DNA of 64,000 bases from an uncultured delta proteobacterium (GCA_963804955.1 CAWDSQ010000020.1:32001-96000); one strand, 5' to 3'; counted from the first letter of the stretch, positions 35,009 through 58,304 are shown. Made by a program: numbers and translations. The notes: generated by a model not told the origin, from the letters alone.

Positions 35009-36374
35009 ATGCTTTCCGAAAAAAATCCCGTTAAAAATCAATTCTTTTACCCCTGGGAGCAAAAGCTCGAGCGGTTGATCACTCCGTTTGAGGAGTTCAT
35101 TCACCGGCAGACAACAAGCGGCATTATGCTCATGGCCGTGTCGGTGCTTGCGCTGGCTGTTGAAAACTCGCCGCTCAGGGAAGGCTATGAGCATCTTATT
35201 CATATGCCTCTGTCCATCACCCTCGGGAGCTGGTCGCTCGAGCGATCACTTGTGCACTGGATAAACGAAGGGCTCATGGCCTTTTTTTTCTTTGTCGTCG
35301 GCCTTGAAATAAAACGCGAGGTGCTTGTCGGCGAGCTGTCCGCGCCACGCCAGGCGGCGCTGCCCATTATAGCCGCCATAGGCGGTATGGTTGTGCCCGC
35401 TCTTATCTATTTCCTGTTCAACCAGACTGAGCCGTGGTCGCGGGGGTGGGGCATACCCATGGCAACGGATATTGCCTTTTGCGTCGGAGCGCTGGTTTTG
35501 CTCGGCAACCGCGTCCCGCAGGCTTTGATGATTTTTCTGGTATCGCTGGCTATTGTTGACGACCTTGGCGCGGTTGTCGTCATTGCGGTCTTTTATACGG
35601 AAAAAATCAATATTCCGGCCCTGGGCATTGCCGCATGCAATTCTTTTTGTGCTGATCACCTTCAACCGGAGCGGCGTTCGCAAAAGCCTCCCGTATCTGG
35701 TTGCAGGCATCTGTCTGTGGTTTGCCCTTTTTTACTCCGGCATCCATTCTACCATAGCAGGTGTGCTGGTTGCTTTCTGCATTCCTTCAAAGGCACGGTA
35801 TAAAACATTCCTTTTTGCAGACCGCGTCAAGACTCTTGTCCGGAGATTCGAGGCATGCAGCCGTCCCCGAGAGAGCATTCTGACAAACATTGAGCAGCAT
35901 ACCGTCCTTCGCGGGCTCAATCAGGAAATAGACCTTGCGGAGGCTCCCCTGCAGCGCATGGAGGATGCTCTGCACCTGCCTGTGGCCCTGTGCGTCATTC
36001 CCCTTTTTGCTTTTGCAAATGCAGGCATCAGAATTGACATGAGTTCCCTTGCAAGCGTCCTGTCCAGCCCGATATCCCTTGGGGTGATGTGCGGTCTTGT
36101 GCTCGGGAAATTTATAGGCATAACCGGCTCGGCATGGCTTGCGCTGCGGCTGGGGATAGGTTCTCTGTCGCAGGGAATAAACCTGCAACACCTGGCCGGC
36201 GTAGGCCTGCTGGGAGGGATCGGGTTTACGATGTCGATTTTTGTAGCCGAACTTTCCTTTCCCGGAAACCCCGAAGGGCTGCACATGGCAAAATCAGGGA
36301 TTCTGCTTGCATCCCTGCTTGCCGGGGTTCTTGGCTTCTTCTGGCTGGGATTTTTCGCAAAAAAAACAGCATAA
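35009..36374 (+). CDS. nhaA: Na+/H+ antiporter NhaA (frameshift near 35640)
   Basis: WINEGLMAFFFFVVGLEIKRE, GWGIPMATDIAF, LAIVDDLGAV, PLFAFANAG, GIGFTMSIF. Confidence 0.95.
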
Positions 36375-37365: not shown

Positions 37366-38588
37366 TTATAATCCAGCCGCATCATACACCAGATCGATAA
37401 TATCGTATACCGGCATCGGGTTGTCCATCCCCTGAGCCGCTGCTGCGAGATTTGTTTCGCAGAACGGGCAGGCAGATGCAAGGGCCTGAGCTCCCGCACT
37501 CCGTGCAGCATCAAGGGCCTCCCGGCCCATATCGGCTGCCAATGCGCCGGCTTCAAACAGGCGCATGCCGCCGCCGGCGCCGCAGCAGATGGTGTTCTCC
37601 CTGGTTGCCGGCCGCTCGACAAGCGTTATGCCGGGTATGGCTTTTAGTATATCCCGTGGCGGGTTAAAAACGCCCAGATGCCGTCCCAGGTGGCAGGGAT
37701 CATGATAGGCCACAGTCATATGCTGCTCTTTGGTGAAGGCAATCTTTTTATCCTTTACAAGCCGTGCCAGATATTCAACCAGATGATACACTTTCGGCGC
37801 AAGTTTTTCATCGGTCTTTGCATACTCAGTTTTCAGCATAGTGCAGCATCCGGCGCAGAGCGTGACTATTGCTGTGCAGCCAAGGCCATTAAGCAGATTA
37901 ATATTGTTTTTAATCATGTCTGCAGCAAGATCCGTGTCGCCGATACGCTTCTGCACACTGCCGCAGCAGGGTTCCGCAGCCACCCAGTATACCGAAGTCG
38001 ACGCCTGCCGCCTTGCAGCACGGCAGCAGCTTTTTTCGCCCGCTCAGCGAGCTCCGGATTGAGGCTCATGGTGCAGCCGACAAAAAGCAGAACATCCGAC
38101 TTATCTTTCTGCGCATCTTTGAGCTTGAGTCCCTTTGCCCATTTGCCCCGAGCCGAACGCGGCATGCCCCAGGGATTGCCGTACTGGCGGGTTTGCTCAA
38201 GCACGCGGCGATAGGCCTCATCCACAAGATCGGGACATTCCCGCAGCAGGTCAGCCCGCAGTGCCTCGACCACGGCCGTATTGTCGACAAGGGGCTTGCC
38301 CGTGTCCTGATCAGTGGCGCCGCACTGGGTCATGCAGTTGCCGCAGAGGGTGCAGCTGTAGGCAGCCCGGGCCAGACCCTCAGTGGGCTGGAGGCTTCCT
38401 TCAAGCAGGGCCTGCGCCAGCATGATTTTGCCGCGGGAGGAAAAATTTTCAAATCCCGGGGTAGCCTTTTTCACGGGGCAGACATAGGGAACTTTGCCGG
38501 TAACCTTGTACCTGCATACGCCGCAGGTGCGGCAGCTGTATATATACCTGCGAACACGGTCAAGCTCACGGAATGTATTCTCAGCCAT
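37366..38588 (-). CDS. 4Fe-4S / CCG-domain oxidoreductase subunit (GlcF/GlpC/HdrD-like; frameshifted)
   Basis: CRTCGVC, CTLCGNCMTQC, CCG, CAGC, YHDPCHLGR, CCGAGGG, ACPFC. Confidence 0.9.
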
Positions 38589-40054
38589 TGCTGTCCTCCT
38601 TTTCGTTTAAATAACTGCCTGTCCACTGGCCGGGATTGAGAATGCCATGAGGGTCAACAACTCCTTTGACAGCCTCAAACAGGCTCTTGAAGCCGGGGGA
38701 CCAGCACGAAGCGTTCAGGTCTGACATAAATCCCTGATTGTAGACATCAATTGATCCAAGGCTGTGGGCGTATTTCTGAAAATCAGCCATTAACGTGCGG
38801 GCAAAGGCGATGGCAGCCGGATTGTCAACATCGGCAAAGAAAACGTCGATTTCACCGACGATGGTGCTTGGGTCAGAAGCGGTGAAAAACTCCCAGGTTG
38901 TGCGCACGCGAAGGCCCAGTTTTTCTGCTTCTTTCAGCCTTTCATTGCGCCAGGCGATCAGCTTGTTATATACTTCCGCAAAGCCCTGCCGCGGCAGGTT
39001 GAAGGGCAGCCATGCCGGAACGCCGAAGCTGTTGAAAATGGCCATCCAGTCCATTTCGCTGTCCTCGCCCGTCGGCGTTCCCATGGCTTCAGCCATGGCG
39101 TCGAGCATGAAGTTGCGCTGCGCCCCGCACTGATCGGCAAGGCTGTTGATGGTGGCAAGCCGTGCTTCAACCTCGGCCTCCTCGTGGCCCTGTATCATAG
39201 CCTGCACGGTAAAGGGCGCTACCTCGTCGGTATCACCCATAAAATTTTTCATTGCCCCGGCGCCGAAAACAAGCACCGGGATCAAAGCGAAGCACAGGGC
39301 GGCGTTCAACGTGGAGCCGCACGAGCTCAAGCGCAGGCTCGATTGCATCAAAAGCGAAAATGCCAGCCCGCAGCTTGGCCGGGTGCTTCGTCATGCGGAT
39401 GGTTGCCTGGGTTTTGATGCCGAAGGAGCCGCCATCGCCGATGAACATTCCGGCAAAATCCGGTCCGCCCAGATTACGGTTGTAGGCAAGGGTCTGGTGC
39501 ACATTGGTGCCGGGCCCGCCGCCGGTTTGCACAATGGTGCCATCGGCAAGCACCACGGTGATGCTCACGATATCGGTCCAGAGACCCGCTGCGCCTGCAA
39601 CGCCTGATATCCATCCGCCAAGTGATACCATATGCAAAGGCGCAAAAGGCGACCACATATAAAAACCATTCTTTTTGCAGGCATGCACCATTTTGCCTAA
39701 GATAATGCCTGCTTCGGCCGTGACGGTCATGCTCTGTGCATTAACATCGAGAACCCGGTCCATGCGCGTCATGTCCAGCAGCACGGTACGGTCCGGGTCG
39801 CCCTTGGGCTGGCCGTAAATAGTAGCCCCGCCGCCGCGGGTCACGATGGGCACGCGGTGCCGATTGCACAGGGCTGCAATGCGCGACACCTCAGCGGTTG
39901 AGCCCGGCCGCACAACCAGCGCGGATTCTGTTCCGCCGAAAAGGCTTGCATCGCGGGTATAGGTGAATCGCGTCACCGGGTCGTCGGTCACGTACTGCTC
40001 GCCGACGATTTCATTCAATTGTTTTTTGAACTCACCAGATAAGGCTTCCGTCAT
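38581..40054 (-). CDS. FAD-binding oxidoreductase (GlcD/PCMH-type; frameshifted)
   Basis: VVRPGSTAEVSRI, VTRGGGA, LDMTRMDRV, VVLADGT, GDGGSFGIKT, C-terminal DPHGILNPG. Confidence 0.88.
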
Positions 40055-40073
40055 GACGTCTGTCCTTTCACGG

Positions 40074-40699
40074 TTATTTGATAACAAATTTGTCGATTAA
40101 AGCTTTGATGCCAAGGCGCACATCCTCTTCGGTATAGCCCATGACGCGCCTGCCATGGCTTTCAAGTATCAGGCCCTGGTACAGCATCTGGCTTGAACCG
40201 CCGATGATCTGCCGTATGACCTGAGGCTTAAGCGCTGACTCGATAAGACCCTGTCGCTGCCCGTCGGCAATAAGGTCGTCGAGGGTCAGCTGCAGCTGGC
40301 CGGGCGCCTCCAATAATCAGCGCATATTTTTTTTGCAGATTTTCATCCTTCATCTTTCTCAGTATCGGGCAGAACTTCTTTGAGGATATGCCCCCAGTAG
40401 AGATTCTTGTTGCTTTGTGACATAAGCTCCATGAGGGCTGCAAATACGGCATGGAGCCGCTCAACCGGTGTTGAGCACCGGGCGAGCTTTTGATTGATCA
40501 GATCATTGACGCTTTCAATAAAGAAAAGAATGACATCCAGCAGTATGTCGAGCTTGTTTTCAAAACAGACATGCACAAGGCCTTTCGAGACGCCTGCCTC
40601 TTTCGCGATTTCGGCGATGGTGGTGTACTGGTAGCCTTTACAGGCGAAAATTTTCATCGCCGCGTTGAGGATTCGCGTCTTTTTATCCTGTTCGGTCAA
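40074..40699 (-). CDS. TetR-family transcriptional regulator (frameshifted)
   Basis: ILNAAMKIFACKGY..TTIAEIAKEAGVSKG; TTG start with GAGGAG RBS. Confidence 0.88.
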
Positions 40700-40717: not shown

Positions 40718-41992
40718 TTACAGCATATCGCTCAGGCTTGTTTTGGTGCGGCTGTTTATTTTTTCATGCAGTTCAGGCCGCTCAGACCGGATCAGCTGCT
40801 CATGTTTAAGAATAGCATTCCACATGAGCCGCGGAGATTTGTACTGGTTGTAGGTGCCTTCAAGAATCTCATCTTCTATGAGTCCGAACAGATAGTCAAG
40901 CTCTTCATCGGTGTAGGTGGGCACCAGGGCGAATCCCTGCGCAACCTGCAGGTAGTCATCTCCATTAAACTCGAAGGACTTCTGCCACCATGCAGTGTAC
41001 TGGCTAAATCCGCCCCGTCCCTCAAGCTCATCGGCAACAGCGCCTGCTGCACGAAAGCCGCAGGCAAGGGCGCCCTGCATCTCGACTTCGACATAGGCTG
41101 CTGCATCGCCGATCACGAGAACATTGCCTGCATGCGGCACTTTCAGGGATGAGTAGGCCCGTGCAGCGCAGCCGGTTTTTTTTATAACCCGTGCATTCCG
41201 AAGCGACGGGGAAAGAGCGCCTTTATGTGCGATATCCTGAAACATTTTTTCCGGCGGGCTGTTTTTGTTGCCGATAACGACCAGGCAGGCGGTGTCGGCA
41301 TCATCAAGGGCCGTGTTGAGCGTAAGCGGTGCAAGACCGCAGTAGGTACGACCGAAATACGTCTTCAGGGCGCTGGGTTCAAAACCGGCAACGCCTTTCA
41401 GAAAATAGATGACGCACAGAGCAGAAGCAAAGCATTGGCGATTGCTGTTTATTCCCATGCGCTCAGCAATCCGGGAATTGACGCCGTCGGCAATAATAAG
41501 CTTGCGGGCATTGATCACGTTTTGTTCCCCTGCGCTGGTTATGAAAAGCGCAACCATATCACCGCGGTCAACAGCGCCGGTTACATGCGTGCCGGACCGC
41601 AATTCAGCACCCGAAGCAGCAGCTGCATCCCACAGGTTCCGGAGCATGAGTCCCTTGTCGATTTTGATTACAATGGGGCTTTTGTCCGGATAGGCAAAAT
41701 GAATGGTCCTGCCGGCAGGGGAGATGAAATACTTATCGGTGACATCGACAGTCGGGCCTCCGTAGTCGACACAGAAGCCGTTGTTGAGTGATACAATTTT
41801 GCCAGCTTTAAGTCGGACCGTGTCGCCCTGAAAGTCTTTGTCCATAATGAGCTGTTCGCAGCAGGCACGGGTGATGAGCGATACATCCTGTCGCTTTTCA
41901 AGCAACACTGTTTTCAATCCCAGTTCAGCGGCGGTTTTTGCCGCCATCAGCCCCGCAGGGCCCGCTCCGATTATTGCAATGTCATACACCAT
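40718..41992 (-). CDS. Geranylgeranyl-reductase/FixC-family FAD-dependent oxidoreductase (copy 1)
   Basis: YDIAIIGAGPAG, IIADGVNS, NVLVIGDAA; AAGGAG RBS before ATG 41992. Confidence 0.82.
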   Translation of the reverse strand: MVYDIAIIGAGPAGLMAAKTAAELGLKTVLLEKRQDVSLITRACCEQLIMDKDFQGDTVRLKAGKIVSLNNGFCVDYGGPTVDVTDKYFISPAGRTIHFAYPDKSPIVIKIDKGLMLRNLWDAAAASGAELRSGTHVTGAVDRGDMVALFITSAGEQNVINARKLIIADGVNSRIAERMGINSNRQCFASALCVIYFLKGVAGFEPSALKTYFGRTYCGLAPLTLNTALDDADTACLVVIGNKNSPPEKMFQDIAHKGALSPSLRNARVIKKTGCAARAYSSLKVPHAGNVLVIGDAAAYVEVEMQGALACGFRAAGAVADELEGRGGFSQYTAWWQKSFEFNGDDYLQVAQGFALVPTYTDEELDYLFGLIEDEILEGTYNQYKSPRLMWNAILKHEQLIRSERPELHEKINSRTKTSLSDML

Positions 41993-42014
41993 GGCAGTCT
42001 CCTTATTGAATATG

Positions 42015-42401
42015 TCATGCACCTGATGGAAGCAGAGGGAATTTATACATACCGAACAGAAAGGCTATATGGTCGATGAACCAGGCGACCTGAGTTACCG
42101 TAATAATGCTGTGATAGGCTGCTATACGGCGGGCTCTGCGCAGCAGGAGGGCTGCAGGAAACAGCAGCCACACGACAAAGCCGATCACGATGGCAAAAAC
42201 AATCACGCTGTTTGTTCCCGGCAGGTTCATCTTTAGGGCCGTGACTCCCATCATCGGCAGCATGCTCTACCAGGAAATCAAGCAGCACTGCCCAACTCAT
42301 TATTAGCACAGAAAAATGGCTGCCATTGTCGCGATACGACCAAGCCGCTCCGTGATAAAGAAGCAATAGGCAACCGTGTACAGTGTTTCACTGAGCGTCA
42401 T
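42015..42401 (-). CDS. Small polytopic membrane protein (frameshifted)
   Basis: Joined fragments give about four hydrophobic segments; same strand as and abutting the downstream reductase. Confidence 0.55.
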
Positions 42402-42578
42402 TTTAGGTTTCCCTTCTACTAGTGCACAATAAAATTGAATTTGGCTTCAAAGCCAATATGTATTCTGCTACGTACACGATTTCTTTTCTGCTGTCAAGTT
42501 TGCAGGAGATTTCGCACGTTGATATTTACAGAAGTTGAAAATTTCCGATTGACAAGACAAATTCAATAGTCTAATTAA

Positions 42579-42596
42579 TAGTTGTAAGTTCAACTA
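42579..42596. promoter_or_regulatory. Putative MarR operator; second site at 43165-43182
   Basis: TAGTTG-N6-CAACTA just downstream of TTGACA (42549-42554); TAGTTG-N6-CAACTG upstream of the SDR gene. Confidence 0.7.
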
Positions 42597-42697
42597 ATTT
42601 TGATTTTTATATTGGACTTTGTCTGATGGCTTACATTTCTGTTATTTTCTAGAATACCAATAATAACTACAAAAGAATTAGCCTGGCTATCTGATCC

Positions 42698-43198
42698 ATG
42701 GACTATACAGCAGAATTTAATCCCAATGATTCATTATCTTATCTCCTGGACAAGACAGCAAGAGCCCAGTTCTGCCGCTTGCAGAATGTTTTTACAAAAG
42801 CCAATTACGATATAACGGTTGAACAGTGGATGATTCTGCTGCTGCTTTGGAAAGAAAACGGCCAGTTTCAGCAGCAGCTTGCTGATGGTATGTGTAAAGA
42901 TAAAACAACATTGACGCGGCAAATAGACGGACTTGAGAAGCGCAACATTATTGTGCGTGTACCTGACAAAATAGATCGAAGACAAAAACGTATTTATCTA
43001 ACCACGAAAGGTAAAGATTTGGAACAGGAACTGATACCGCTGGGCATTGCAAACGGACTATGCGCAATAAAAGATATTCCCCCTGAGCATATTCAGATTT
43101 GCAAGGATGTACTGCGTAAAGTTTATGAAAATCTTATAAACAGGTTAATATTATATTGCATAATTAGTTGCATAGCCAACTGTGTGCGGCGCAACTAA
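42698..43198 (+). CDS. MarR-family transcriptional regulator
   Basis: ITVEQWMIL, QQQLA...DKTTLTRQIDGLEKR, DRRQKRIYLTTKG. Confidence 0.93.
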   Translation: MDYTAEFNPNDSLSYLLDKTARAQFCRLQNVFTKANYDITVEQWMILLLLWKENGQFQQQLADGMCKDKTTLTRQIDGLEKRNIIVRVPDKIDRRQKRIYLTTKGKDLEQELIPLGIANGLCAIKDIPPEHIQICKDVLRKVYENLINRLILYCIISCIANCVRRN

Positions 43199-43213
43199 TA
43201 TAAGGAGATACAA

Positions 43214-44019
43214 ATGGAACAAAGCGCAAAAAGATTTATAAATAAGCATATTATTATTACAGGTGCGGCAGCCGGCATCGGCAAAGGTGTTGCTCACCGA
43301 TTTGCTGACGAAGGGGGCAGGGTGGTTATTGCCGACAGGAACCGGGAATGCGGTGAGGCAGTTGCGAAACAAATTACTGAATCCGGTGGAACCGCTGTCT
43401 ATATTCCTGTTGATGTGGCTGATCCGGATTCAATAAATGAACTCATAAAAAAAGCAGCTGACGTTTTTGGGCCGATAGATGTCGCTGTGTCAAACGCGGG
43501 TATCAGCGAAACGCAGTCTTCAGCCCTTGATATTACCGTTGAGGAGTGGGACCGCGTGTATGACATAAATACCAGGGGGTCATTTTTTTTCTGCAAAGCA
43601 TGCGCTCAGAATATGATGGATAATGATATCAAGGGATCAATCGTGACCCTGGGATCAATTGTAGCGCGCAGCGCGAAAGGCATGTCGGGGGCGTACGCTT
43701 CTTCAAAAGCTGCAATCATCATGTTTACTAAAACACTTGCAAAATGCCTTGCGCCCATGGGCATACGGGTAAATTGTGTTGCGCCGGGGATTGTTGCAAC
43801 CGAAATATATAACGGTGTCGAAAAAGAGATGATGATGGAAAAAGATTCTTTTGCCGACTGGCTGGTAGAGCAGTCGATTGCAAGCGGCCAGCTGCTTATA
43901 CCCCGTTGCGGTACGGCAGGTGATATCGCCTGGCCATTGCCTTTCTGGCATCCGATGATGCAGCCTATATTACCGCTCAAAACTTAAGCGTTGATGGCGG
44001 CATAGACTGGTGTTGGTAA
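43214..44019 (+). CDS. SDR oxidoreductase, paralogue of 36533-37339 (frameshift near 43930)
   Basis: TGAAAGIG, SNAG, YASSK; the shifted frame ends ITAQNLSVDGGIDWCW*. Confidence 0.92.
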
Positions 44020-44050
44020 TACTGTCACGTAATTTATTACGGAGAGTATC

Positions 44051-44530
44051 ATGACGAAAGCTTTTGGAAAAGAGATCCCCTGGGAAAAACAGCGGGATAT
44101 GCTGATTGAAATGACCGCGCTGAAATTACCGATGCTTTTTCAATCTCTTGTTTCCGCGTACGGAGCAGATGAAGGAAAAAGGATATATGAAAAAATCTAT
44201 GAGGAAGGTTTCAAGCAACGCTCAAGCCGCTTCAAGGATAAAGATATTGGCGATATCCTGATGGCCGAAATAGACATGTTCCCGGCAATGGGCTGGAAGC
44301 TGTGGGTTGAAAAGGTGGAAGAAAAGGGATCTGTTGCCTGGTATGAGCATCTGGAAAAATGCCCGCATCTTGAGGCGACGAGAAAGTATAAATTGCCTGA
44401 CCCCTGTTCTCTTATCTGCGACATGGATTGCACCTTAGGCGAGAAATATAAAGTCGCACACTGGGAAAGGATGAAACACATGCCGGCAGGTGACAGCGAA
44501 TGCTGCTTCAGGATTACCCGGTGCCCATAA
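44051..44530 (+). CDS. ATC-hydrolase-like (L-2-amino-thiazoline-4-carboxylate hydrolase family / V4R-like) protein
   Basis: KCPHLE...CSLICDMD...WER...GDSECCFRI cysteine pattern. Confidence 0.7.
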   Translation: MTKAFGKEIPWEKQRDMLIEMTALKLPMLFQSLVSAYGADEGKRIYEKIYEEGFKQRSSRFKDKDIGDILMAEIDMFPAMGWKLWVEKVEEKGSVAWYEHLEKCPHLEATRKYKLPDPCSLICDMDCTLGEKYKVAHWERMKHMPAGDSECCFRITRCP

Positions 44531-44597
44531 AATGTGTTTGCAGTTGCTGCTCATTGCTAGAGCAATCTGAATTAATAAATTTATATATCAGGAGGCG

Positions 44598-45587
44598 ATG
44601 TTACACATGACTAATGAAAATGCAGCATCAATTTTTAAGGTGGATGAAGATCTTTGCATTGGCTGCGGGATTTGTATTGATGCCTGTCCCATGAAGATTC
44701 TGGAGATTCAGGACGGGCTGTGCATTATGACGGACCCGGAAAAATGCCTTGAGTGCGGAACCTGCGAGCGTGCATGTCCTGAAAAAGCCATTACCATTAA
44801 AGTTGGCGCCGGCGCCAAAGCGAAAGCAACGTTAAAAACGGGCACAGCGGGAGCCACGGAAAGCGCGCGGGCCAAGTTCTACCCCATCCTTGATAAACTG
44901 ACGGAAATGATACAGGTGGTCAGCCCGAAGCAGATATTCACCTTCGAGGGGCAGGATATCACGAGCCTCAATAATTTCGAAATCGATAACGAGCCCTCCT
45001 ATTACCGGGCCTATACGGCGGACAAAATCGATAAGCTGGGCATATCAAGCTCGCTTTTCTTCGGGATTATGACCGCGGATGTGATGGTCCTGACGCCGTC
45101 CAAAGAATATGATATCCCCTATTTTGTAATGGACTGGGATGAGTCAGAAGAGCATATATTCTTTATCTGCGATCTTATGCCCGGCGATGATCCGGGAAGG
45201 AATAACGACTATCTGAACAAATATCTGTATGAGCCACTCGAAGAACTGTACATGAACTACACCATGTCCATACCCGGTCTGAAAAACAGCGTGTTCCACT
45301 GGGTGCGGTCCATCCATTCCCCCTATATCATCACCGGCTCCATAGAAAAAACCAAAGAGAACATTGAAATGCTTGCCAACTGCGCCTGTGATTACCTGAA
45401 GGCCTGGATCGAAATATGGAAAAAGGCAGAGCCGCAGGACCCCAATTCTCCGTACATGAAACTCGTGCATGAGCGGAGAAAAAACATCCGGGCAATATAC
45501 AAAGAAAACGACCCCGGCGCCGGATCGCTGAACAAATACCTGGGCAAGGAGCTGGGGGCGACGGCCATTTCCATCATCGAGCCCTGA
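44598..45587 (+). CDS. 2x[4Fe-4S] ferredoxin fused to a ferredoxin-dependent bilin reductase / RCC-reductase-like domain
   Basis: CIGCGICIDACP and CLECGTCERACP, Ala/Thr/Lys linker, then VMVLTPSKEYDIPYFVMDW...HIFFICDLMP, IHSPY, ENDPGAGSLNKYLGKE. Ferredoxin part is clear; FDBR call is by motif recognition only. Confidence 0.72.
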   Translation: MLHMTNENAASIFKVDEDLCIGCGICIDACPMKILEIQDGLCIMTDPEKCLECGTCERACPEKAITIKVGAGAKAKATLKTGTAGATESARAKFYPILDKLTEMIQVVSPKQIFTFEGQDITSLNNFEIDNEPSYYRAYTADKIDKLGISSSLFFGIMTADVMVLTPSKEYDIPYFVMDWDESEEHIFFICDLMPGDDPGRNNDYLNKYLYEPLEELYMNYTMSIPGLKNSVFHWVRSIHSPYIITGSIEKTKENIEMLANCACDYLKAWIEIWKKAEPQDPNSPYMKLVHERRKNIRAIYKENDPGAGSLNKYLGKELGATAISIIEP

Positions 45588-45657
45588 TGTGGGCGCAACC
45601 GGGTTGTGCAGCATCATGATCAATGAAGGTTAAACAATTTAGATAAGGAGAACAGCC

Positions 45658-46370
45658 ATGGCAGAAATACTACAGTTTGCAGCAGAGGCAAAAAAAAGTC
45701 TTGAAGCGCTGCTGCCCCTGCAGCCCGTTGCTCTTGATCCACAGCTGCAGCATATAAAAACCGAGGGTGGCTCTGTCGATATCGAGCTTTTCAAGGCCGA
45801 CAAGTTTGAAAAAATTGTTCTGTGCACGATAAACATCTTCGAAACCGAAGTGGTTGAGGCCACCGTTATGGCATGGCCCGATGAAAAGCACAATTTCCCC
45901 ATTCTCTGGGGCAATCTGACCATAGTCCCCTATGTCATGAACGTTCCTATCTTTGATTTCGTTCCCCTGATGGACCCGGTTCTCTATCAGGACTATGCAG
46001 ATACCTACATTGAAGGAGTCAACGAGCTGAAAGCAGACGCCCTTGAGCGTGCTCGGGGATACGGTCACTCAATAAAGACGTAGTGCTGCCGTCAAAAACC
46101 ATCTATACCCTGTCGCCGTACAGCCTTATTGCAAATATTAAGGAAGAGGGAATTCCTCTCGTCCCGCAGATCACGGATGCCTATATTAAGGCGTATATAA
46201 AGCTCTGGCAAAAGGCCGGGCCCGTGGAAAAGGCCGCTGATCTTGAGCATTACGCAAAAAAGCGGGCTGCAACACGCACTCTTATGAAGGGCAATGACCC
46301 CGGCTACCCATTTATGATCGATGCTTTCGGGGAGGAAAAAACGCATAAGGTTTTTGATATTATTTTTTAG
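45658..46370 (+). CDS. Second bilin reductase / RCC-reductase-fold protein (frameshift near 46050-46083)
   Basis: ADKFEKI, VMAWPDEKHNFPILWGNL...IFDFVPLMDPVLYQDY, LSPY, GNDPGYPFMIDAFGEEKTHKVFDIIF; visibly related to the upstream gene. Confidence 0.68.
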
Positions 46371-46848
46371 TTTACGGCAGCCGGTGTGCGGCAGAACACT
46401 GAAAAATTTATTGCTGCACATGGACGTTTTGACCCTTTAAAAATGCAATTTAAACAGTTCTGTAAGGTGCAGGTAAAAAGCGATGCTGCTAGTGAGAACA
46501 GCGTGCGTACGATGAACAGGTTTAAGTGTGTTTTAATCGACACAGGGGTACTTACTCTGTATCTGCTTATAAATTTATTGCCGCTCAGAGTCCGTGATTA
46601 TATTCTGGACAGAATGTTTCCACCTATCCGGGATACTCGGCACTCAGCGTATTCAAAAGGTAAGGAGCACCGTGCATAAATCATGAAAAAATTTTACCTG
46701 AAAAAAGTGTGTTGAATGACTAAATAGTTACTGTTTCAAGCGACCTTTTTTAAAAAGGTATGCTTAGAAAAGGAGGGTGTGATTGTCTTTTCAATCGTAA
46801 AAAGTTGTATGGACACAAAATAATTTTTTCTAAAGGAGTACGGGACTT

Positions 46849-48778
46849 ATGAGAAAAACCGAGATTAGAAAAAAACTCAGATTCTTGGCGGTAGCAGCTT
46901 CTTTTTTATGCATAGTGATGGGGTATGGGGTTTCATGGGCCGCAGACAGTGATGGTGACGGCATTGACGATGCGATTGACAACTGCCCCGCCATTGCAAA
47001 TCCCCAGCAGCTTGATGCCGATGATGATGGCATAGGAGATCTATGCGACACCACCCCCGGCTGCGGCGGCTGTGGTGTGGTTGCCTGTGAGGGTCAGGTT
47101 GATGCGGACCTTGACAATTGGGCTGATGAGATTGATAACTGCCCGAGCAGCTGCAATACCCAGCAGCTTGATGCCGATAGCGACGGCATCGGCGATGTGT
47201 GCGATACAGCTCCCGGCTGCGGGGGCTGCGGACCAGCCGGCCTGTGAGGGGGGGTGCGCAAAGGACCCTGAAGTAGTCGTAACAGCAAGCCAGTCTATAG
47301 CCGGCAAGTTCGATCGTTATACGGTGACCGGCATCAGGACGCCCCTGCCGCAGCTGCCCAATGTGCCCGGGTTCATCGGGGCATCCTATCTGACCATTGG
47401 AGATATTGACGGTGACGGCAGGCAGGATATCCTGAGCACATCCGGTGGCGGGCTGGATAACAATTTCACCACATCCGACGGTGCTGTTGCAGTGTACACG
47501 CAGGGCGCAGACCTTGACAGCTGGACACAATCTATTATTTATCCGGTTGGGACGACGGGCCTTCTTGGCTTCCCCAATGAGATGGTGCTGCGGGATATGG
47601 ATGAGGACGGTGATTTTGATATTATGGTTCTGGATAATTTTCTTGCCGGCTGGTTTACCCACTTCCCGGCAGGCATCTATTATCTGGAAAACAAGGGCGG
47701 CGATATTACCAGCAAGCTTAACTGGGAAATAAAGACCATTTTCCGGGGAGACGCAACACAGATCGGCTGGTCATCCTATCACCGGGCGCGCTTTCTTGAT
47801 ATAGACGGCGATGGGCTGGAAGACTTTGTCACCACAAAAGTGTGCATGTACAACTGGCAGAATACGTCTGACCAGTATGTGTGGACGGAATGGTGGAAAA
47901 AAGAGGGCAGCCCGGAAACCAGCCCCACAGCTTATTCAGGCCCTTATACTATAGGTGACGGCGCCGGATTTTTGTTTGAAATGATGGATATAGATGGAGA
48001 CGGAGACCTGGACGTTGCAGGGCCGCAGTTCTACATTCAAAGTCCGGGTACGCTTGTGGTAAAGCAGGGTACTATCCGCGGCGACAGCCTGATCTGGTTT
48101 GAGAATCCGGGAACGGCTGGTGCGGTAACGCAGCCCTGGAACCGCTATACGATTGACAACTGGTACACATCGCAAAACCCCCTGGGCAAAAACATGGAGG
48201 TTATTTCAGGCGATATCGATAATGATGGGAAAATAGAGCTGATAGATACAACTCACAACCATCAGGATTACAAGCCGAACAATGTTCCCGGCGATCCGCT
48301 CAACCACAGGATCTGGCCATCGGGGGTGTACTATCTGGGCATTCCTGATGATCCCAAGATAACGGCCAACTGGAAGCCGATCACGATTGACCGTGGCGAC
48401 CCGAATCTTGACCCGACTGATCCGGTAGCGGTTGCCAATGATGTCTATGCAGTTGATCGTCCGGGCGGACCCTACAGCCAGGGCTCACCGGGCATGGTGA
48501 GAGCTGCGGATATAAGCGGAGATGGCTACCTTGACCTGGTTGTGCCCGGTGACGGCAAGGGAGCAGTGTACTACTATGAATCCCTGGGCAGATCAGCAGG
48601 CAAACTGCAGTTTTTGCGGGCGGCGATCTATAAAGACACAGCCTGCATGCCGGGTGATGCCAAGATTGTGGATATTGACGGCGACGGCACGCTTGAGATC
48701 GTACAAGTAATATACGATACCAGTGTGGAGAAAAACTCGTCATCAGGCTCCATATTTATTTACAAGCTGAAGCCGTAA
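46849..48778 (+). CDS. Secreted protein: TSP3-like repeats + FG-GAP/VCBS beta-propeller (frameshift near 47240)
   Basis: Signal peptide, two DNCP..N.QQLDAD.DGIGD.CD..PGCGGCG units, then about seven D-x-D-G-D-G-x-x-D repeats. Confidence 0.85.
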
Positions 48779-49878: not shown

Positions 49879-51156
49879 TTAATACGTTTTTTGCAAATTC
49901 CCGACTGTGAACATATCCGCAGGAACATCTATGGTAATCGCCGGCTTGTAAAAATATTCCTGATCACTTAAGCCTGAATGGGTCCGTTGAAACTCTTCAA
50001 ATTGTGTGGCCACAATGAACGGTTTTATTTGACCGGTCTTTGTCGGCAGTGGGCAGGTGTTATTCATGAAGCACTTCCAGAATTTGCCGTTGGAATCATA
50101 AATTTCCGTCCAGAGAATTATAGCTGTTTCGGGATCAAGGTACCAGACACGCTTGCTGTAAACATAATTGGGATCCTTGCTGATGACATCAATAACAAGC
50201 GTGTTGCATCGTTCAAGCGTCAAACCGTTTGAGAGGGCCTGTCCGGGGATACGCGTCGTTGCTTTCATGTCAGTGTGCCTGCTGCAGAGGAGGTCTTTTT
50301 TACCTTTTAGTGTGTATTTGTTTCTGGTTAACTGGCCATCCCACAGGTATTCATCATCATAGATTATATCTGAACCGTCAATTGCATCGGTACGTTGGGC
50401 CGTCGACATTCTTCTAATCCGCCTGAACTGGCTGTACCAAAGATATGCATCATCTTCCATTTTCGGATCAATGTATCTGATATTGAACATGCGTGTATTT
50501 AAAAACTCAGCAGGTTTGAACATATGGAGGAAATATGCCCGATGCATTCCTTTCGGATTTTCGGCGACTGCAGGGAGGGGTTCTTTTTCAGTACGGTGAA
50601 TGAAAAAGTATTCAGTGTACTCCTGATCTGCAATGCGATCGTTTTTTGCTGTAGGATTGATCGATGGACTGTAGCGTCGATATTTACAGGTATCTCCATG
50701 ATTGTTGAACTCAAAATTATAGGCTGCTTCCATGCCGTCCGCCGGCTCAGGAAATGGACGCCCGGCTATTTCAGCATAGTTGGTTATCGTACCGTCCTGA
50801 TTTTTTTTGACTGTTGACGCATACTTCCTTGTTGCATCAGAAAACCCTTTGGTTTCAGGTACAGGCTGGTAGGCGACGATAGCAAAGAAAAACCCCTCCG
50901 GAGGGGCGCCCCACTTTTCAGGTTCTTTTATAATTCCCACATAGGAGTCGGGCATATAAGCCGCAACCTGATCGATAGTTGCTTTATCTACTTTTTTCCC
51001 AGCCCAGGTTTTTTCCCATTCCCTGACTTTTGCCAGTTCATCAGGCGTGTATGCAGTGCCGATTACAGTTTGTGCTCCTGCAAGCGCCGGGGCCAGATAC
51101 AGCAGGAGCGCTCCAAGCATCCAAACTCTGAACATGTACTGCCAGCTGTTTTTCAT
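49879..51156 (-). CDS. DUF1329-like exported protein
   Basis: Signal peptide, GRPFPEP, DDAYLWYSQFRRIRRMS..QRTD..DGSD, YVYSKRVWYLDPET, YDSNGKFWK. Confidence 0.82.
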   Translation of the reverse strand: MKNSWQYMFRVWMLGALLLYLAPALAGAQTVIGTAYTPDELAKVREWEKTWAGKKVDKATIDQVAAYMPDSYVGIIKEPEKWGAPPEGFFFAIVAYQPVPETKGFSDATRKYASTVKKNQDGTITNYAEIAGRPFPEPADGMEAAYNFEFNNHGDTCKYRRYSPSINPTAKNDRIADQEYTEYFFIHRTEKEPLPAVAENPKGMHRAYFLHMFKPAEFLNTRMFNIRYIDPKMEDDAYLWYSQFRRIRRMSTAQRTDAIDGSDIIYDDEYLWDGQLTRNKYTLKGKKDLLCSRHTDMKATTRIPGQALSNGLTLERCNTLVIDVISKDPNYVYSKRVWYLDPETAIILWTEIYDSNGKFWKCFMNNTCPLPTKTGQIKPFIVATQFEEFQRTHSGLSDQEYFYKPAITIDVPADMFTVGNLQKTY

Positions 51157-51759: not shown

Positions 51760-53084
51760 CTAATCACCCAGGGTGCGCGACTGCTGCTTCTTGAATTTTA
51801 TCCCAGATTTCAGGCCGCTCTCTTTGAATGCGCTCATCGTGTTTGTGGATTGCAGCCCACATCATGCGCGGTGAGTCATACTGGCTCCAGCTGCCGTTCA
51901 GGACCACATCGTCAAGCAGCGAAAACAGGAACACGACCTCCTCGTCCGTATAATACGGGATAAGGGCATAGCCGGTTGTAACCTGCATCATGCCGTCATC
52001 GTTGAACTCAAAAGTTTCAAGCCAGGTTTTGCCGTATTCGGCAAACCCGGGCTTACCCTCAAGCTCTTTTGCAACGGCATCTGCTGCCCAGTAGCCGCAG
52101 TTGAGCGCACCCTGGGCCTGCACCTCGACGAATGCCGCGGCATCGCCAATCATCAGGCAGTTGCCCCGATAGGGTGTCTTCATGGGCGCAAAGGCCTTGG
52201 TGGTGCAGCTGTGCATGCGCTCGACTTTTGCGTTTTCAAACATCCAGGCAACAGGGCTCTCTTTGGTAAAATAATCAAACAGCTCCAGGGGCTTTTTTTC
52301 AAGGGATCCCACAAGAATCAGATCGGCCCAGTCGAAATGACCCGCCGGGCCCGTGCCCAGAAGCGGCGCAAAGGCGGAACCATAACACTGCCCCCAGAAT
52401 CCGACCCATTCATTGGGGCTGTAATTTTTCACCCCTGACATATACAGCGCCACAACCGGAGCTGAGGTAAAATACATGCGACCTTCATTCATCCCGAGGG
52501 ACTGGGCAATCTGCGCGCTGGCGCCGTCGGCCGCGATGAGCTTTTTGGCCTGAAGCCTGAAGCGCTTGCCTTCGCTCACGCATTTCAGCGTTACCTCTGT
52601 CGGGGCCATCCTTTGCCTCATAGCAGATCGTGTTGTTCATATAATCAACACCAAGAGCAAGGACTTCATCAAGCAACTGCTGCTGCAGGCCGCCCTTGTC
52701 GTATTTCCAGGCAATGGGTTTCTTGTCGGGCCAGGCGTAATGGGCATTATGCTTGAGATCAGCAGAATAATAATATTTATCAAGGCAGGGGCACAGCGGC
52801 CCGTTGTAGGTTATTTCCCAGCCGAATTTTTCAGATCTGATCTTATTATCCGGGTTTGACGGCACCATGCGGTTGGGCCCTTCCATGGGCCGGCCCGGCT
52901 CAACAATAATCGTGTCGCCGTTATAGTTTTCATCAAGGATGATATGCTCGCTGCAATAGCGGGTTATCTTGCTGATATCTTTCCGTTTTTCGATCAGCGC
53001 TACTTTCAGACCCTTTTTTGCCGCCCATTTTGCCGCGTGAAGACCACCGGGACCCGCTCCTACGATTGCCACGTCATATGTCAT
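51760..53084 (-). CDS. Geranylgeranyl-reductase/FixC-family FAD-dependent oxidoreductase (copy 2; frameshifted)
   Basis: [39 protein letters not shown]; shares FEFN...YTDEE...QY.SPR.MW.AI.KH.E.I..ERPE with copy 1. Confidence 0.82.
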
Positions 53085-54345: not shown

Positions 54346-55117
54346 TTACTTTCGCATCCAGCGCTGATATTTGCGCATGCCGTCTTTTTCAAAAGCCGAG
54401 CTGTTGACCGTAACCTGGTTGACGGTTATTTTGCTCAGAAGCATGCCTTTTTTGATCATTTCACGGGCCTGCTGCGGTTCGATTTTCATTTTTTTTGCAA
54501 GCTCCTCGTAGGGATAAATTTCTACCAGGACTTTTTCGAATTCAGGGTTTGATCCATCAATAAGTTCAGCAGTGCCGATAAACTGTGCGCACAGCACCGT
54601 ACCCCATGTTTTGAATTCTTCATGCCAGTTGAGGCTCACCTTTGGATTCTGTTTTATGTGCAAAAGCTTCGTGGTGCCTTTTTCATGCAGTCCGTACAGT
54701 GTCATGGTGTCAGGATCAAAGGCGAAATCGGCTGTGGTGGTAAGCGGCACATTATTGAGGCTGGTGCCCAGCACACAGGTTCTTTTGCTGTTTTTTGCCG
54801 CCCATGAGTTTTCCGATTTCAGCCTTAAGCCGGTCCTGCGGCATGACGCCCTGACCTGCGGCATACTTAAGATAGGCCCCATGCAGCCAGGCCTGCGTTG
54901 CGGTTGTCTTTGCATCCAGCTTTACCTCATGGCAGTCATTGCAGGAAACACCCTGCGGTATTTCGGGATGATTGTCGCTCAGGCCGCTTGCAGCGGCGTC
55001 GATCTGTTTGGGCTTTGCCGCCTTTTTCTGTCATGCTGCGGCAGCGAAAGAAAAGCTCCCGAACATGAGAACAGCTGCAATGCCGGAAAACAATGCTGTA
55101 TACATAACCTTCTTCAT
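54346..55117 (-). CDS. Exported monoheme c-type cytochrome / PNPOx-like split-barrel fusion (one in-frame TGA, one frameshift)
   Basis: Manual translation: MKKVMYTALFSGIAAVLMFGSFSFAAAA*QKK...DNHPEIPQGVSCNDCHEVK...GGKK, then KRTCVLGT...KLLHIKQNPKVSL...QFIGTAELI. Confidence 0.72.
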
Positions 55118-55358: not shown

Positions 55359-56623
55359 TTAGATCGCCCTGTTAACCAAATCAACCAGACTCAGCATTTT
55401 CAGCGGGCTGCCGATAGCGTTGATGGAATCCCCGAGATTCGACTCACACCAGGGGCAGGAGGTGACCAGCGCTTCGGCTCCGGTTGATTCAGCCTCCTCA
55501 ATGCGCTCGCGCGCTGTTTCAAGTGCAAATTCCGGAAATGCCGAGCGCACTCCGCCGCCGGCGCCGCAGCACCATGAAAATTCCCGGATGCGCTCCATTT
55601 CCACAAGTTCAACACCCGGTATGGCTTTCAGCACATTGCGCGGTGCATCGAATACGCCTTGTGCTCCGTAATTGCGCTCCCGCGGCGGCTCTGAGAGGCC
55701 CCACTTCACGCGCACGCCTTCCCACAGGTCCTGCGGCTCGCTGCCGCGGCCCAAATGGCAGGGGTCATGCCAGGTGACACGCATCGGCACTTCTTTCGTA
55801 AACTTCAGCCGTCCTTCCTGTATAAGCTGATCGAGATACTCGGAGCTGTGCTTTACCTCAAAATTCATTTTGCCGACTCCGGGGTACTGGCTTCTTAAAA
55901 CTCCGTAGCATCCTGCGCATGAGGTCACGACGGTCTTGATGCCCAGGTCATTGAACATTTGAATATTGTCGGCCTGCATGTTCGCGAAACATGTCTACCA
56001 TGCCCACCTTCAGCACCGGGCTGGCGCAGCAGGCCTCATTGTTTCCGAGAATGCCCGACATCAATGCCCGCATTCTGAAGAATACCGAGTGTCGCGCGGG
56101 ACACCTCCTGCATATTGGCATTGTAGGAATACGTGCAGCCGGCAAAATACAGAACCTCGGCCTTTTCTTTGCTGATGTCTTTCACCTTCATTTTACGCGC
56201 CCAGTGACCGCGCCGCGAGCGGGGCTGGAGCCAGGGATTGTTGTTCTGGCGAATGCTGTCAACCGCAGGCATATGGCCGGGCAGGGGGCCTTTGCCCTTG
56301 GCAACGGCAAGTGCACGCAGCTCCTGCAGAATTTCAAGGGGCTCCATGTCGCGGGTGAACTTGCAGGTCACGTCACATCCGCCGCACAGGGTGCAGGTGT
56401 AGATGACCTCGGCGGCTTTGTCCGTCATTTCCACCTCGCCTTCCAAAAGCGCCCGGGCAAGATCAAAGCGGCCCTGGGCTGAGTAAGCGTCAAATTTGTA
56501 TTTCTGCATCGACGGGCAGATCCGGGCCCGCTCTTTGCTTTTGATACTCCATGGGTGCACCCATTTGCACATGGAGCAGCGCTCACAGTTAACCAGGTCC
56601 CAGCGGTATTTTTCAAGACTCAT
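55359..56623 (-). CDS. 4Fe-4S / CCG-domain oxidoreductase subunit (frameshifted)
   Basis: CERCSMC, CTLCGGCDVTC, CCASP, SCAGC, WHDPCHLGR, CCGAGGG, SCPWC. Confidence 0.9.
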
Positions 56624-56760
56624 TGGTTCTCTCCATTTTAGATTTTGGATTGCGGAGTTTGGATGCAGTACAAAGCAAATATCCAAAACAGCCGCTTGTA
56701 TTTAGTTATTCATCTGAATCGGTTTGGGATTTTTGGATTTTCAATCAGCAATCGTAAATC

Positions 56761-58304
56761 CTAAAGGCCGAGCTTTCCGGGATTCATTATGTTTTTCGGG
56801 TCAAGCACGTCCTTGACCATTTTTGCCGTCTGAAACTGCACGGCGTTGCCGCTTGCGATCATTTCGGCCCAGGGGCCATAGGCCCGGGTAAACAGCGCTC
56901 CAAGCCCGTACATGCGGCGGCTTGCGCTGCCGTGTACCTGCCGCATGCGTGCGCAGTCATCACGGTCTGACGGGTCATAGGGCAGCATAAATTCAAGATG
57001 GCAGACCCGGCCGTTTTCAATCGGCTGTAAATAGATGCCCATGTCGTCGGTTGCCACAGAGCTCTTTATCGCTTCCTGGTGCATGGCATCGACAAACTTC
57101 GAAGCGCGGTTCATGGTGGTGATGAAGAAAATATCCGAGCTTGCCCCTTTCAGGCGATCCTTCCAGTACACATCGCCATCCCAGCACCGAAGCAGGTTCT
57201 GACTCAAAAAAAGCGGCTGCACGGGGCGCCTGGCTGATGCCCGGCTGCGGCGCGAGACCGCATTCGCGGGCTGTTTCAAGAAAATCAGCCTCCTGCCAGG
57301 CAATGCGCTCATCGGGCAAACGGCGAAGCCCCCCGATGCAGAAAATCTGCACATAGGCGGGCAGCCGCTTTTTAAGACGCTCATAATCCTCGGGCATGCT
57401 CTGCGCAAGTATAAGCGCCAGTGCCGTGCGGTTCAGGATAAAGCATTCATAGCCAAGCCACTTGCGCTGAACCCTGTAGGTAAAATCAACCAGTGCGTCC
57501 AGATTATCAGATGCCGTGAAAAAAAGTTTCTGCCGGGAGGGCAGGGGTTCTGCCATGATATTCATCCAGGTTGACTATGCCAAGAGTGCCCTGTGAACGG
57601 GTATACAGCCTGTTCCAGTCAAAGCCGGGTCCCCAGGGGCCTACCATGTCTGAGTTGTTCAGCTCGGGCGGCCCGAGGGCTGCTGTGCCCGTGCGGAAGA
57701 TATCGCCCGACGGCATGACGATCTCCATAGTGTAAACGGGCTCGCTGTAATTAAACTCGGGGATGAGCTTGGGCTGCGCCTCAAGATTAGACGTGAGCAC
57801 GGACTGATCCCTGCGGGGCAGAAGCGGAAATAAAGCCCGGAGATTTTCTTTGGCAAGGGCTTCCTGCAGCTGGCCATAGGTGACGCCGGGCTGTATGCGG
57901 GCGCTGCGGTTTCTGTGATCGATTTTTTGTATCTGCCGCCAGCCCGACAGGTCGACCGCCGCGCCGCCCATGCGTACCAGAGCGTTTCCATAAGTATGGG
58001 TGCCCGAGCTGAGCGGGGTCAGGGGAAGGGATGCTTCATTGGCGTATTTGACCAGAGCGCAGAGCCTTTCAAGATTATCAGGCTTCAGGACAAAGCAGGG
58101 CCTGCCGGCCTCTTCAAGGCTTTTGTCCCGGCTGAGCGCGTCGAGGGCCGCAGGGTCTGCGCACACCTGCTCCGGGCCAAGTATTTCTTCCAGACGGGCT
58201 TTCTGCTCAGCGGAGTAGTGCTGCCGCTCTCTTATAACCTGGTCGTACGGTTTATCTTCCAGGGGCTTTAAATAATCAACTTTTGCAAGCACGGTATCTG
58301 CCAT
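56761..58304 (-). CDS. FAD-binding oxidoreductase (GlcD/PCMH-type; frameshifted)
   Basis: AVDLSGWRQI, IQPGVTYGQL, EIVMPSGDIFRTG, SQGTLGIV, DPKNIMNPGKL. Confidence 0.88.

Follow-up and report, generated by a model that had tools for sequence, protein, structure and literature searches.

What might a non-phototrophic anaerobe do with two adjacent genes of the bilin reductase fold, one of which carries its own ferredoxin? The question is raised by positions 43,214–46,370 of a 64,000-nucleotide stretch of DNA from an uncultured delta proteobacterium (GCA_963804955.1, CAWDSQ010000020.1:32001-96000); this whole stretch is referred to below as the window. Here, a ferredoxin-dependent bilin reductase (FDBR) domain fused to a bacterial-type ferredoxin (Fd-FDBR) is followed by a stand-alone paralog (FDBR2). 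Comparison of related loci indicates that Fd-FDBR and FDBR2 are a conserved two-gene module, and the pair is a real and conserved variant of the FDBR enzymes that is apparently undescribed. Our preferred reading, to which we assign a probability of roughly one half, is that the module is an oxygen-independent, self-contained FDBR-fold reductase acting on a hydrophobic conjugated substrate other than one derived from heme. The pair comprises the following features:

44598–45587, plus strand: Fd-FDBR fusion, a 329-codon frame with Pfam matches to Fer4 and Fe_bilin_red
44868–45584, plus strand: FDBR-fold catalytic domain of the fusion, with D179 (MDWDESE) and D305 (NDPG) invariant
45658–46370, plus strand: FDBR2, the stand-alone FDBR-fold paralog, with two part matches to Fe_bilin_red

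Domain organization and fold

Residues 14–64 of the fusion form a 2×[4Fe-4S] ferredoxin, residues ∼68–95 a low-confidence linker and residues ∼96–329 the FDBR-fold domain. The ferredoxin part matches the dicluster Fer4 models of Pfam (53.6 bits, cut-off 21.1) and contains two CxxCxxCxxxCP motifs, both complete, which agrees with the earlier description of the electron carrier as a fused, bacterial-type dicluster ferredoxin. An AGGAGG sequence lies 11 nucleotides upstream of a second ATG at 44607, at which the homologs begin; this ATG is probably the true start of the gene, and would give a protein of 326 aa as in the homologs.

The catalytic domain matches Pfam Fe_bilin_red (PF05996) with 48.3 bits (cut-off 31) over residues 163–319. 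Its score against RCC_reductase (PF06405), the family of red chlorophyll catabolite reductase (RCCR), is 17.4 bits and thus under the cut-off of 24.9, so that only the first of the two Pfam families suggested in an earlier note on this DNA is supported at this level. Against NCBIfam, the best 25 of the 93 families matching the fusion are all ferredoxin models.

A model of the fusion, calculated from the window sequence with 44 homologs in the alignment, has a mean predicted local distance difference test score (pLDDT) of 89.5 and a predicted template modeling (TM) score (pTM) of 0.86, and is poor only at the N-terminus and in the linker around residues ∼82–86. FDBR2 was modeled from the intact ortholog at a related locus, L019, with 14 homologs (pLDDT 90.0, pTM 0.88). 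In Foldseek comparisons with the PDB, the fusion model retrieves tomato HY2 first (6kme, E 1.3e-10), with further matches to PcyA, GtPEBB, RCCR and PebA, all with a probability of 1.00 and E-values of 1e-10 to 1e-8. The FDBR2 model is best matched by PebA (2x9o, E 1.6e-11, TM 0.81), with a TM of 0.82 for GtPEBB (6qx6); PcyA and RCCR are also matched, and coproporphyrinogen oxidases (CPO) stand far lower in the list. For both models, the TM-score to the target is 0.63–0.82 across HY2, PcyA, PebB, PebA and RCCR. The predicted structures thereby show that both proteins have the α/β/α sandwich fold of FDBRs and RCCR, as had been anticipated from their motifs.

A profile search of PDB sequences was carried out with the FDBR domain alone, as a profile of the whole fusion is swamped by ferredoxins. 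It gave E-values of 6.7e-11 for HY2, 2.2e-7 for GtPEBB, 3.6e-4 for RCCR and 0.12 for PcyA. Eight FDBR-like proteins matched any of the NCBIfam equivalog models for PcyA, PebA and PebB (NF002760, NF009719/20, NF009721-23); the best score is 91.9 bits, for a paralog on contig C22, against a cut-off of 263, and none is over cut-off. The FDBR2 ortholog from L019 scores 34.6 bits against the same cut-off of 263. The FDBR-like proteins of this genome are members of the superfamily that lie outside every named enzyme family.

Active-site residues and a proposed mechanism

The motifs previously pointed out in the two proteins (for the fusion YDIP, VMDW, SPY and NDPG; for the second protein HNFP, WGNL, SPY and NDPG) are all present in the translations. 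D179, the first Asp of MDWDESE, aligns with the Asp of GLDLV in PebB and with the Asn of CANFF in HY2, and D305 of NDPG aligns with the Asp of KDPG/KDPA motifs, KDPG being that of HY2. In a joint MAFFT alignment, D179 and D305 share columns with D105 and D206 of PebS (sequence of phage P-SSM2), for which PDB titles list the mutants D105N and D206N. Because hhalign aligned the Fd-FDBR domain with PebS over the C-terminal third alone (probability 1.9), placement of the central Asp relied on the hidden Markov model alignments with PebB and HY2 together with MAFFT. In FDBR2, N86 falls on PebS D105 and D213 on D206 in both profile and multiple alignments, as is the case for each of the 7 rows listed. 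All 44 aligned fusion homologs have D179 and D305, and all 14 FDBR2 rows have N86 and D213. As judged from these alignments, the fusion holds a putative proton-donor pair of the PebS/PebB type, and FDBR2 the Asn variant of the HY2 type. The Asp/Asn difference between the two proteins, already remarked upon in the earlier note, is real and falls exactly on the position of PebS D105.

From these features we infer how the fusion might work. The 2×[4Fe-4S] domain would take up low-potential electrons, for which AOR and other ferredoxin-linked dehydrogenases are candidate sources, and would deliver them singly to a substrate bound in the FDBR pocket, which is free of cofactors. D179 and D305 would donate protons, as D105 and D206 do in PebS, so that a double bond in an extended conjugated system would be reduced by a radical, proton-coupled route. 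FDBR2 would bind the fusion as a pseudo-symmetric heterodimer and may either catalyze a second, different reduction or hold the substrate and hand it over.

The FDBR-fold domains could instead be non-catalytic ligand-binding or carrier modules, for example in redox sensing or as chaperones, with the ferredoxin sensing the redox state. The central catalytic position does vary among the paralogs of this genome, in which the PebS D105 column is occupied by T, E, D, F or N, and the available part of one study reports pre-PcyA variants that bind cyclic tetrapyrroles (PMC13446030). The Asp of the D-P-G motif is kept in all of these paralogs but one. Within the Fd-FDBR clade itself, however, both catalytic Asp residues are invariant, the gene context is enzymatic, and a low-potential dicluster ferredoxin that is fused, or in some genomes split but adjacent, is the usual signature of an electron-donor partner. 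We therefore regard a non-catalytic role as highly improbable.

Conservation of the pair and its predicted complex

Relatives of the fusion fall into ∼97 clusters at 90% identity, most of which are fusions of 320–335 aa and a few of which are unfused proteins of ∼240 aa; they carry generic names only, such as ‘4Fe-4S binding protein’ or ‘PreA subunit’. The 24 related loci that we compared come from metagenome-assembled genomes of Thermodesulfobacteriota or ‘delta proteobacteria’, plus one single-amplified genome of Spirochaetota. FDBR2 lies directly downstream of the fusion in 14 of them, one locus ends at a contig edge, and nine are without an adjacent FDBR2. A full-length fusion is present in 23 of 41 related genomes, including the one under study. 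An in-frame TAA separates the ferredoxin and FDBR parts in four of these 23 genomes (G012, G018, G019 and G020), where the two parts apparently exist as neighboring genes in a naturally split version. This arrangement argues that the ferredoxin is a dedicated partner of the FDBR part.

Complex prediction for the fusion and FDBR2 gave an interface score (ipSAE) of 0.82 (0.80, 0.82 and 0.82 in three runs), the highest value among three controls being 0.00. At least 98% of the contacts are shared between the runs, and the partner has a pLDDT of at least 89. The mark applied is reached by 116 of 157 solved complexes and by 2 of 215 mismatched pairs, counts that apply only approximately here, since own alignments were used. 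The predicted interface is pseudo-symmetric and comprises residues 198–203, 234–239 and 289–300 of the fusion and residues 106–109, 140–154 and 197–208 of FDBR2, among which D198, R201 and R293 of the fusion and D106, V108 and K201 of FDBR2 are invariant. The proposal of a two-component system thus gains in silico support from both the conserved adjacency and the complex prediction, which the putative heterodimer passed.

At one related locus (L023, 9435–10226), a second FDBR2-like copy is found downstream of the pair. At its N-terminus (MKQKSTTIRSMLFLIAGMGLMVAIVSPGSA...), this copy is hydrophobic and resembles a signal peptide, which would be odd for a ferredoxin-dependent enzyme.

Genes surrounding the pair

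The pair closes a co-oriented run of five genes (marR, a short-chain dehydrogenase/reductase (SDR), an ATC_hydrolase-like gene, Fd-FDBR and FDBR2), which open reading frame (ORF) calls and Pfam place where it had been reported. The other features of the region are as follows:

42698–43198, plus strand: marR, a MarR-family regulator at the head of the run (Pfam MarR, 50.9 bits, cut-off 24.6)
43214–44019, plus strand: SDR-family oxidoreductase (Pfam adh_short, 184.9 bits, cut-off 26.6)
44051–44530, plus strand: Cys-rich ATC_hydrolase-like protein of 159 aa (PF14196, 48.6 bits, cut-off 28.1)
42015–42366, minus strand: small membrane protein ending in FLFGMYKFPL, split here by a frameshift (ORFs compared by eye with relatives)
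40718–42022, minus strand: divergently transcribed FAD enzyme of the geranylgeranyl reductase (GGR) family (TIGR02032, 79.1 bits, under the cut-off of 158.8)
37366–40087, minus strand: FAD_binding_4 flavoprotein and Fer4_8/CCG iron-sulfur subunit, each split in two (Pfam)

Neighbors were counted over 25 loci, the window included. The SDR is the most constant neighbor of the pair (15 of 25 loci); its intact ortholog in L019 belongs to the glucose 1-dehydrogenase subfamily of NCBIfam (234.6 bits, cut-off 215). The FAD_binding_4 flavoprotein occurs at nine loci, the Fer4_8/CCG subunit and the GGR-like enzyme at six each, TetR at five and AOR at four. The marR and ATC_hydrolase-like genes, both noted earlier alongside the pair, prove to be variable accessories: MarR is found at 9 of 25 loci and the ATC_hydrolase-like gene at 4 of 25 (the window, L020, L021 and L023), the latter being absent from the 96%-identical L019 and having no match among NCBIfam models. 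The neighbors of the pair are generic redox enzymes, not tetrapyrrole genes. A promoter scan of positions 42000–47000 found promoter-like sites to be rarer than in shuffled sequence (6, compared to a mean of 9.1), and a terminator scan of the same interval found no convincing terminator bounding the run.

A BilQ-like MarR was considered as a possible link to bilirubin and rejected, since the MarR protein shows only a generic MarR resemblance: its BilQ score is 28.3 bits (cut-off 125), no higher than on other MarR models. The BilQ/R/S system also differs in its reductase: the bilirubin reductase BilR is of the Old Yellow Enzyme type, whereas the reductases here have the FDBR fold.

The small membrane protein family also adjoins the pair in L022, L034, L037 and L039, and its L022 member has no Pfam match. 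Directly after the pair, window positions 46849–48778 hold a frame with thrombospondin-type-3 repeats and a 568-aa protein with FG-GAP repeats; the overlap of the repeat frame and the FG-GAP gene at 47072–47247 probably marks one gene broken by a frameshift. An FG-GAP protein also adjoins the module in L020, L029 and L032.

Integrity of the reading frames

The second gene, of ∼235 aa, is present as had been noted, but in this assembly it occupies two frames instead of one open frame: 45658–46083 (141 aa, Fe_bilin_red 28.8 bits) and 46083–46370 (95 aa, 19.8 bits). Both frames are under the Fe_bilin_red cut-off of 31 and cover the first and last parts of the model, respectively. The assumption that this gene and the SDR are intact does not hold for the present sequence, in which both are frameshifted. 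DNA alignment with L019 and L020 traces the break in FDBR2 to one extra base near 46049 and another near 46067. The SDR lacks a single base near 43930, and its real C-terminus (AFLASDDAAYITAQNLSVDGG...) lies in another frame, ending at 44019.

If the frameshifts were real, FDBR2 and the SDR would be pseudogenes and the module a decaying remnant in this strain. Indels of one base at three sites, none of which lies in a long homopolymer, would be in keeping with such decay. However, L019 and L020, whose fusion proteins are 96% and 92% identical to that of the window, carry unbroken copies of both FDBR2 (236 aa) and the SDR (270/278 aa). Contigs from other public runs that cover the indel sites, which derive from related strains (88–99% alike) and not from this strain, are mostly without the indels: the extra base at 46049 is absent in 3 of 3 covering runs and that at 46067 in 2 of 3, and the G missing from the SDR after 43930 is present in two contigs of run X2. 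Split genes are also frequent. In the window they include NhaA, two FAD_binding_4, two Fer4_8/CCG and two TetR genes, with split, overlapping same-strand frames at, for example, 35009–36374, 37366–40087, 40074–40699, 42015–42366, 51764–53084 and 55359–61319. AOR and AMP-binding genes occur in two to three pieces elsewhere in the assembly, and split frames are also seen in L010, L017 and L018; GGR-like genes are among the kinds affected. The density of breaks in the assembly, approximately one per few kb, points to an indel-prone assembly and is far above the natural density of pseudogenes. Because both genes are unbroken in relatives that are 88–96% identical, the contigs of other runs mostly lack the shifts and split genes are frequent, we read the three frameshifts as very probably errors of assembly, and consider a decaying module improbable.

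All public runs with this sequence contain it at small shares (≤0.17), for which reason we name no habitat; no RNA run is among those listed.

Paralogs and the host genome

Far from standing alone, the pair is part of a lineage-wide expansion. The genome (G000) has 10 Fe_bilin_red matches, 8 of them over cut-off, in addition to the second gene of the window and one fragment, and is thus estimated from sequence matches to hold about 12 FDBR-like paralogs. Locations of such paralogs in the genome are as follows (contig:positions):

C22:17101-17853, FDBR-like paralog
C7:129019-129642, FDBR-like paralog
C32:76205-76849, FDBR-like paralog
C14:218657-219364, FDBR-like paralog
C5:99314-100042, FDBR-like paralog
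C30:325783-326535, FDBR-like paralog
C7:388079-388555, FDBR-like paralog
C7:400590-401586, FDBR-like paralog
C7:198531-198797, FDBR-like paralog
C2:7780-8115, FDBR-like paralog

With a profile of the whole fusion, the ferredoxin part is matched only in the window copy; the two other matches in this genome (E ≤ 1e-40) cover the FDBR part only. Fe_bilin_red matches are present in 31 of the 41 related genomes, this one included, at 6–22 per genome; in one family of the class, 8 of 8 genomes lack them. Run against 1.84 billion representative sequences, the FDBR-domain profile retrieves just 177 proteins with E ≤ 1e-3, and 12 with E ≤ 1e-30. The family is a rare one and bound to its lineage.

A phylogenetic tree was built from 28 rows, in which the canonical references are phage PebS and two phage PcyA only; PebA, PebB, HY2, RCCR and pre-PcyA are not among them, and neither the tree nor its alignment includes the fragmented paralogs at L016, L017 and L018. 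Support of 86/94 separates a group made up of Fd-FDBR, FDBR2 and four other paralogs from PebS and phage PcyA. Fd-FDBR and FDBR2 form separate clades, with support of 100/99 for FDBR2 and of 99/99 for the Fd-FDBR core (88/98 when two unfused homologs are included). In this small tree, three paralogs on long branches are placed with the references.

The genome assembly comprises 4.26 Mb and is 87% complete, so that absence from it, here and below, is not proof. Heme oxygenase (PF01126) has 0 matches at E ≤ 1 in this genome, Photo_RC, PHY and COX1 have no match, and HutW/ChuW and DsrA have none over cut-off; we do not call the organism a sulfate reducer because no DsrA reaches its cut-off. There are 28 AFOR_N matches, corresponding to about 20 genes for tungsten/molybdenum enzymes of the AOR family. 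This gene make-up fits a ferredoxin-rich anaerobe with broad reductive and oxidative catabolism, not a pigment maker. Of the pathway partners that had been reported as missing from the window, heme oxygenase and phytochrome, and likewise a photosynthetic reaction center, are not found genome-wide either; phycobiliproteins were not searched for.

Comparison with known reductases

Known FDBRs use a separate soluble ferredoxin, which is of the plant-type [2Fe-2S] kind in the studied cases. The closest solved relatives by profile are PebB and HY2 (GtPEBB, 6QWQ/6QX6; tomato HY2, 6KMD/6KME), which have the same fold; the fusion keeps their central Asp and D-P-G Asp, and FDBR2 has the Asn of HY2. They differ in that their ferredoxin is free and plant-type, whereas a bacterial-type 2×[4Fe-4S] donor domain is fused here, and in the predicted heterodimer. 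Sequence identity is ∼16–20% and the PebB equivalog cut-off is not reached. The host here is a non-phototrophic anaerobe in which no heme oxygenase of its own was found that could supply biliverdin (0 matches to PF01126 in the 87%-complete genome).

PebA/PebB and PebS (P-SSM2, 2VCK) resemble the module in that paralogous FDBR-fold genes stand side by side, the D105 and D206 positions are conserved, and the best Foldseek match of FDBR2 is a PebA (2x9o). In contrast, the pair groups apart from PebS in the small tree, and the upstream oxygen-dependent step of those pathways was not found in the genome. RCCR (2ZXL/3AGA), which is ferredoxin-driven and cofactor-free, also has this fold (Foldseek E 8e-10 to 1e-8, profile E 3.6e-4), but the RCC_reductase score is under cut-off, the Asp pair here is of the FDBR type, and there is no pheophorbide a oxygenase context.

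Like the proteins described here, pre-PcyA enzymes are FDBR homologs from non-photosynthetic bacteria, including delta-proteobacterial lineages (PMC10151467, available part). According to the available parts of two reports, they are biliverdin-reducing enzymes whose genes stand in clusters with those for heme oxygenase, BBAG globins, V4R and Fe-S proteins (PMC10151467, PMC13446030). The present system differs in its fused ferredoxin and in the lack of a heme oxygenase match in the genome. Among the scanned neighbors there is no heme oxygenase or V4R, and no globin was recognized with libraries that hold no BBAG models. The pair does not group with phage PcyA in the small tree, which contains no pre-PcyA sequences. 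Uncharacterized sequences from Ca. Schekmanbacteria are placed between FDBRs and RCCR, with RCCR in the outgroup, in the available part of PMC10151467. A fusion to ferredoxin is not mentioned in the main texts, as available, of PMC10151467, PMC13446030 and PMC13193486, and our literature search found no paper on ferredoxin-fused FDBRs or on FDBR homologs of anaerobes; the supplementary trees of PMC10151467 may hold members in their ‘outgroup’.

What is the substrate?

The pair could be a true reductase of bilins or tetrapyrrole catabolites, analogous to PebA/PebB or RCCR. Its substrates would then be linear tetrapyrroles, either imported from decaying phototrophs (phycobilins, biliverdin, bilirubin or chlorophyll catabolites) or made by an oxygen-independent ring opening, and the cell would use the products as an electron sink, in nutrient salvage or as the ligand of a sensor. 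All solved proteins of this fold in our Foldseek lists bind tetrapyrroles, in agreement with the available part of PMC13193486. The PebS-type Asp pair of the fusion and the HY2-type Asn of its partner would suit such a role. So would the DUF1302/DUF1329/BNR/MMPL gene sets, which we take to be uptake systems for hydrophobic compounds and which lie near several paralogs and in the window. Near other paralogs there are a HemG-like flavodoxin, a weak ferrochelatase-like protein and a PCP_red-like protein, all under or near their cut-offs. The paralog on contig C30 shares a strand with a kinase whose GAF domain has phytochrome and CBCR GAFs (2lb5 and 2k2n, E 2e-4) among its best PDB matches. However, GAFs that do not bind bilins score equally, and the column of the phytochrome Cys is occupied by Thr, with a Cys two residues later. 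More generally, the 6–22 copies per genome far exceed the needs of any known bilin pathway, no paralog comes up to the PcyA, PebA or PebB equivalog cut-off, and the neighbors of the pair are an SDR, an FAD/FeS dehydrogenase, AOR and AKR, with no tetrapyrrole genes among them. The searches for heme oxygenase, HutW/ChuW, PHY and reaction centers in the 87%-complete genome speak in the same direction. We consider a bilin or tetrapyrrole-catabolite reductase rather unlikely, and nothing that we found ties the pair to the bilins or chlorophyll catabolites first proposed as its substrates.

We favor a non-heme conjugated substrate over a bilin because of the copy number, the neighboring genes and the failure to find a ring-opening enzyme. 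The substrate is, we think, most likely not heme-derived biliverdin, and a pigment, polyene, quinoid or aromatic compound in anaerobic catabolism is more likely.

Several points weigh against a self-contained, non-heme reductase module of this kind. Everything said about catalysis rests on homology, and this holds for every member of the family. The neighboring genes form a heterogeneous set that does not name a substrate. This assembly shows FDBR2 and the SDR with broken frames, which, if real, would mean that the module is decaying here. D198, R201 and R293 of the predicted interface are also invariant in homologs from the nine loci without an adjacent FDBR2, and may serve another role, such as substrate binding or homodimerization. 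RCCR presumably crystallizes as a homodimer (a literature search did not confirm this), and the passed complex prediction could reflect likeness to a solved dimer of this kind. Finally, the fold is known only from enzymes that handle tetrapyrroles, namely FDBR, RCCR and CPO, which share it according to the available part of a 2026 FEBS J article (PMC13193486); on this record, the prior favors a tetrapyrrole substrate.

Should the two proteins be active reductases, the radical chemistry that FDBRs carry out without a cofactor would reach into anaerobic metabolism, and the module would offer a compact, self-powered ene-reductase scaffold as well as a testable candidate for a pre-oxygen ancestry of the family. 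The intact orthologs in L019, where the pair lies at 7001–7990 and 8061–8771, and in L020 make the system testable now. As a broader and more doubtful possibility, which we put forward tentatively, the pair may belong to an ancient, oxygen-independent radiation of radical reductases with the FDBR fold in strict anaerobes related to Desulfobacterota, of which it would be only the visible part. This radiation would comprise ferredoxin-fused heterodimers acting on non-heme substrates (polyenes, quinoid or aromatic compounds, or imported pigments) and would include the ‘archae-FDBR’ stock that later gave rise to bilin reductases and RCCR. The known relatives FDBR, RCCR and CPO need oxygen in their pathways, and an origin after oxygenic photosynthesis has been proposed for them (PMC10151467, available part), which such an ancestry, if true, would contradict.

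Loci of other FDBR-like paralogs

DUF1302/DUF1329/BNR/MMPL gene sets recur at paralog loci, as do genes for PNPOx-like flavoproteins, GGR-like enzymes, ETF, AKR-FeS and AOR. The window itself contains a DUF1329 gene (49879–51156, minus strand), and DUF1329 with DUF1302, YCF48-like BNR and MMPL/RND recurs near FDBR-like paralogs. It also contains a gene for a small PNPOx-like flavoprotein (54346–54915, minus strand), a type that likewise recurs near them; such sets or PNPOx-like genes are seen near paralogs in L012, L013, L015, L016, L037 and L039.

Some other paralogs have weakly tetrapyrrole-flavored neighbors (L011, 4855–5994; L015, 8712–10121; L012, 8099–8959; L014, 11136–11486). These are a 379-aa Flavodoxin_5/HemG-like protein, a ferrochelatase-like protein (26.3 bits, cut-off 27), a protein whose C-terminus is PCP_red-like (24.7 bits, cut-off 32.5) and a corrinoid adenosyltransferase. 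In L014 (G000:C30), positions 3269–8554 of the minus strand carry the FDBR-like paralog, two unknown proteins and the membrane GAF histidine kinase on one strand.

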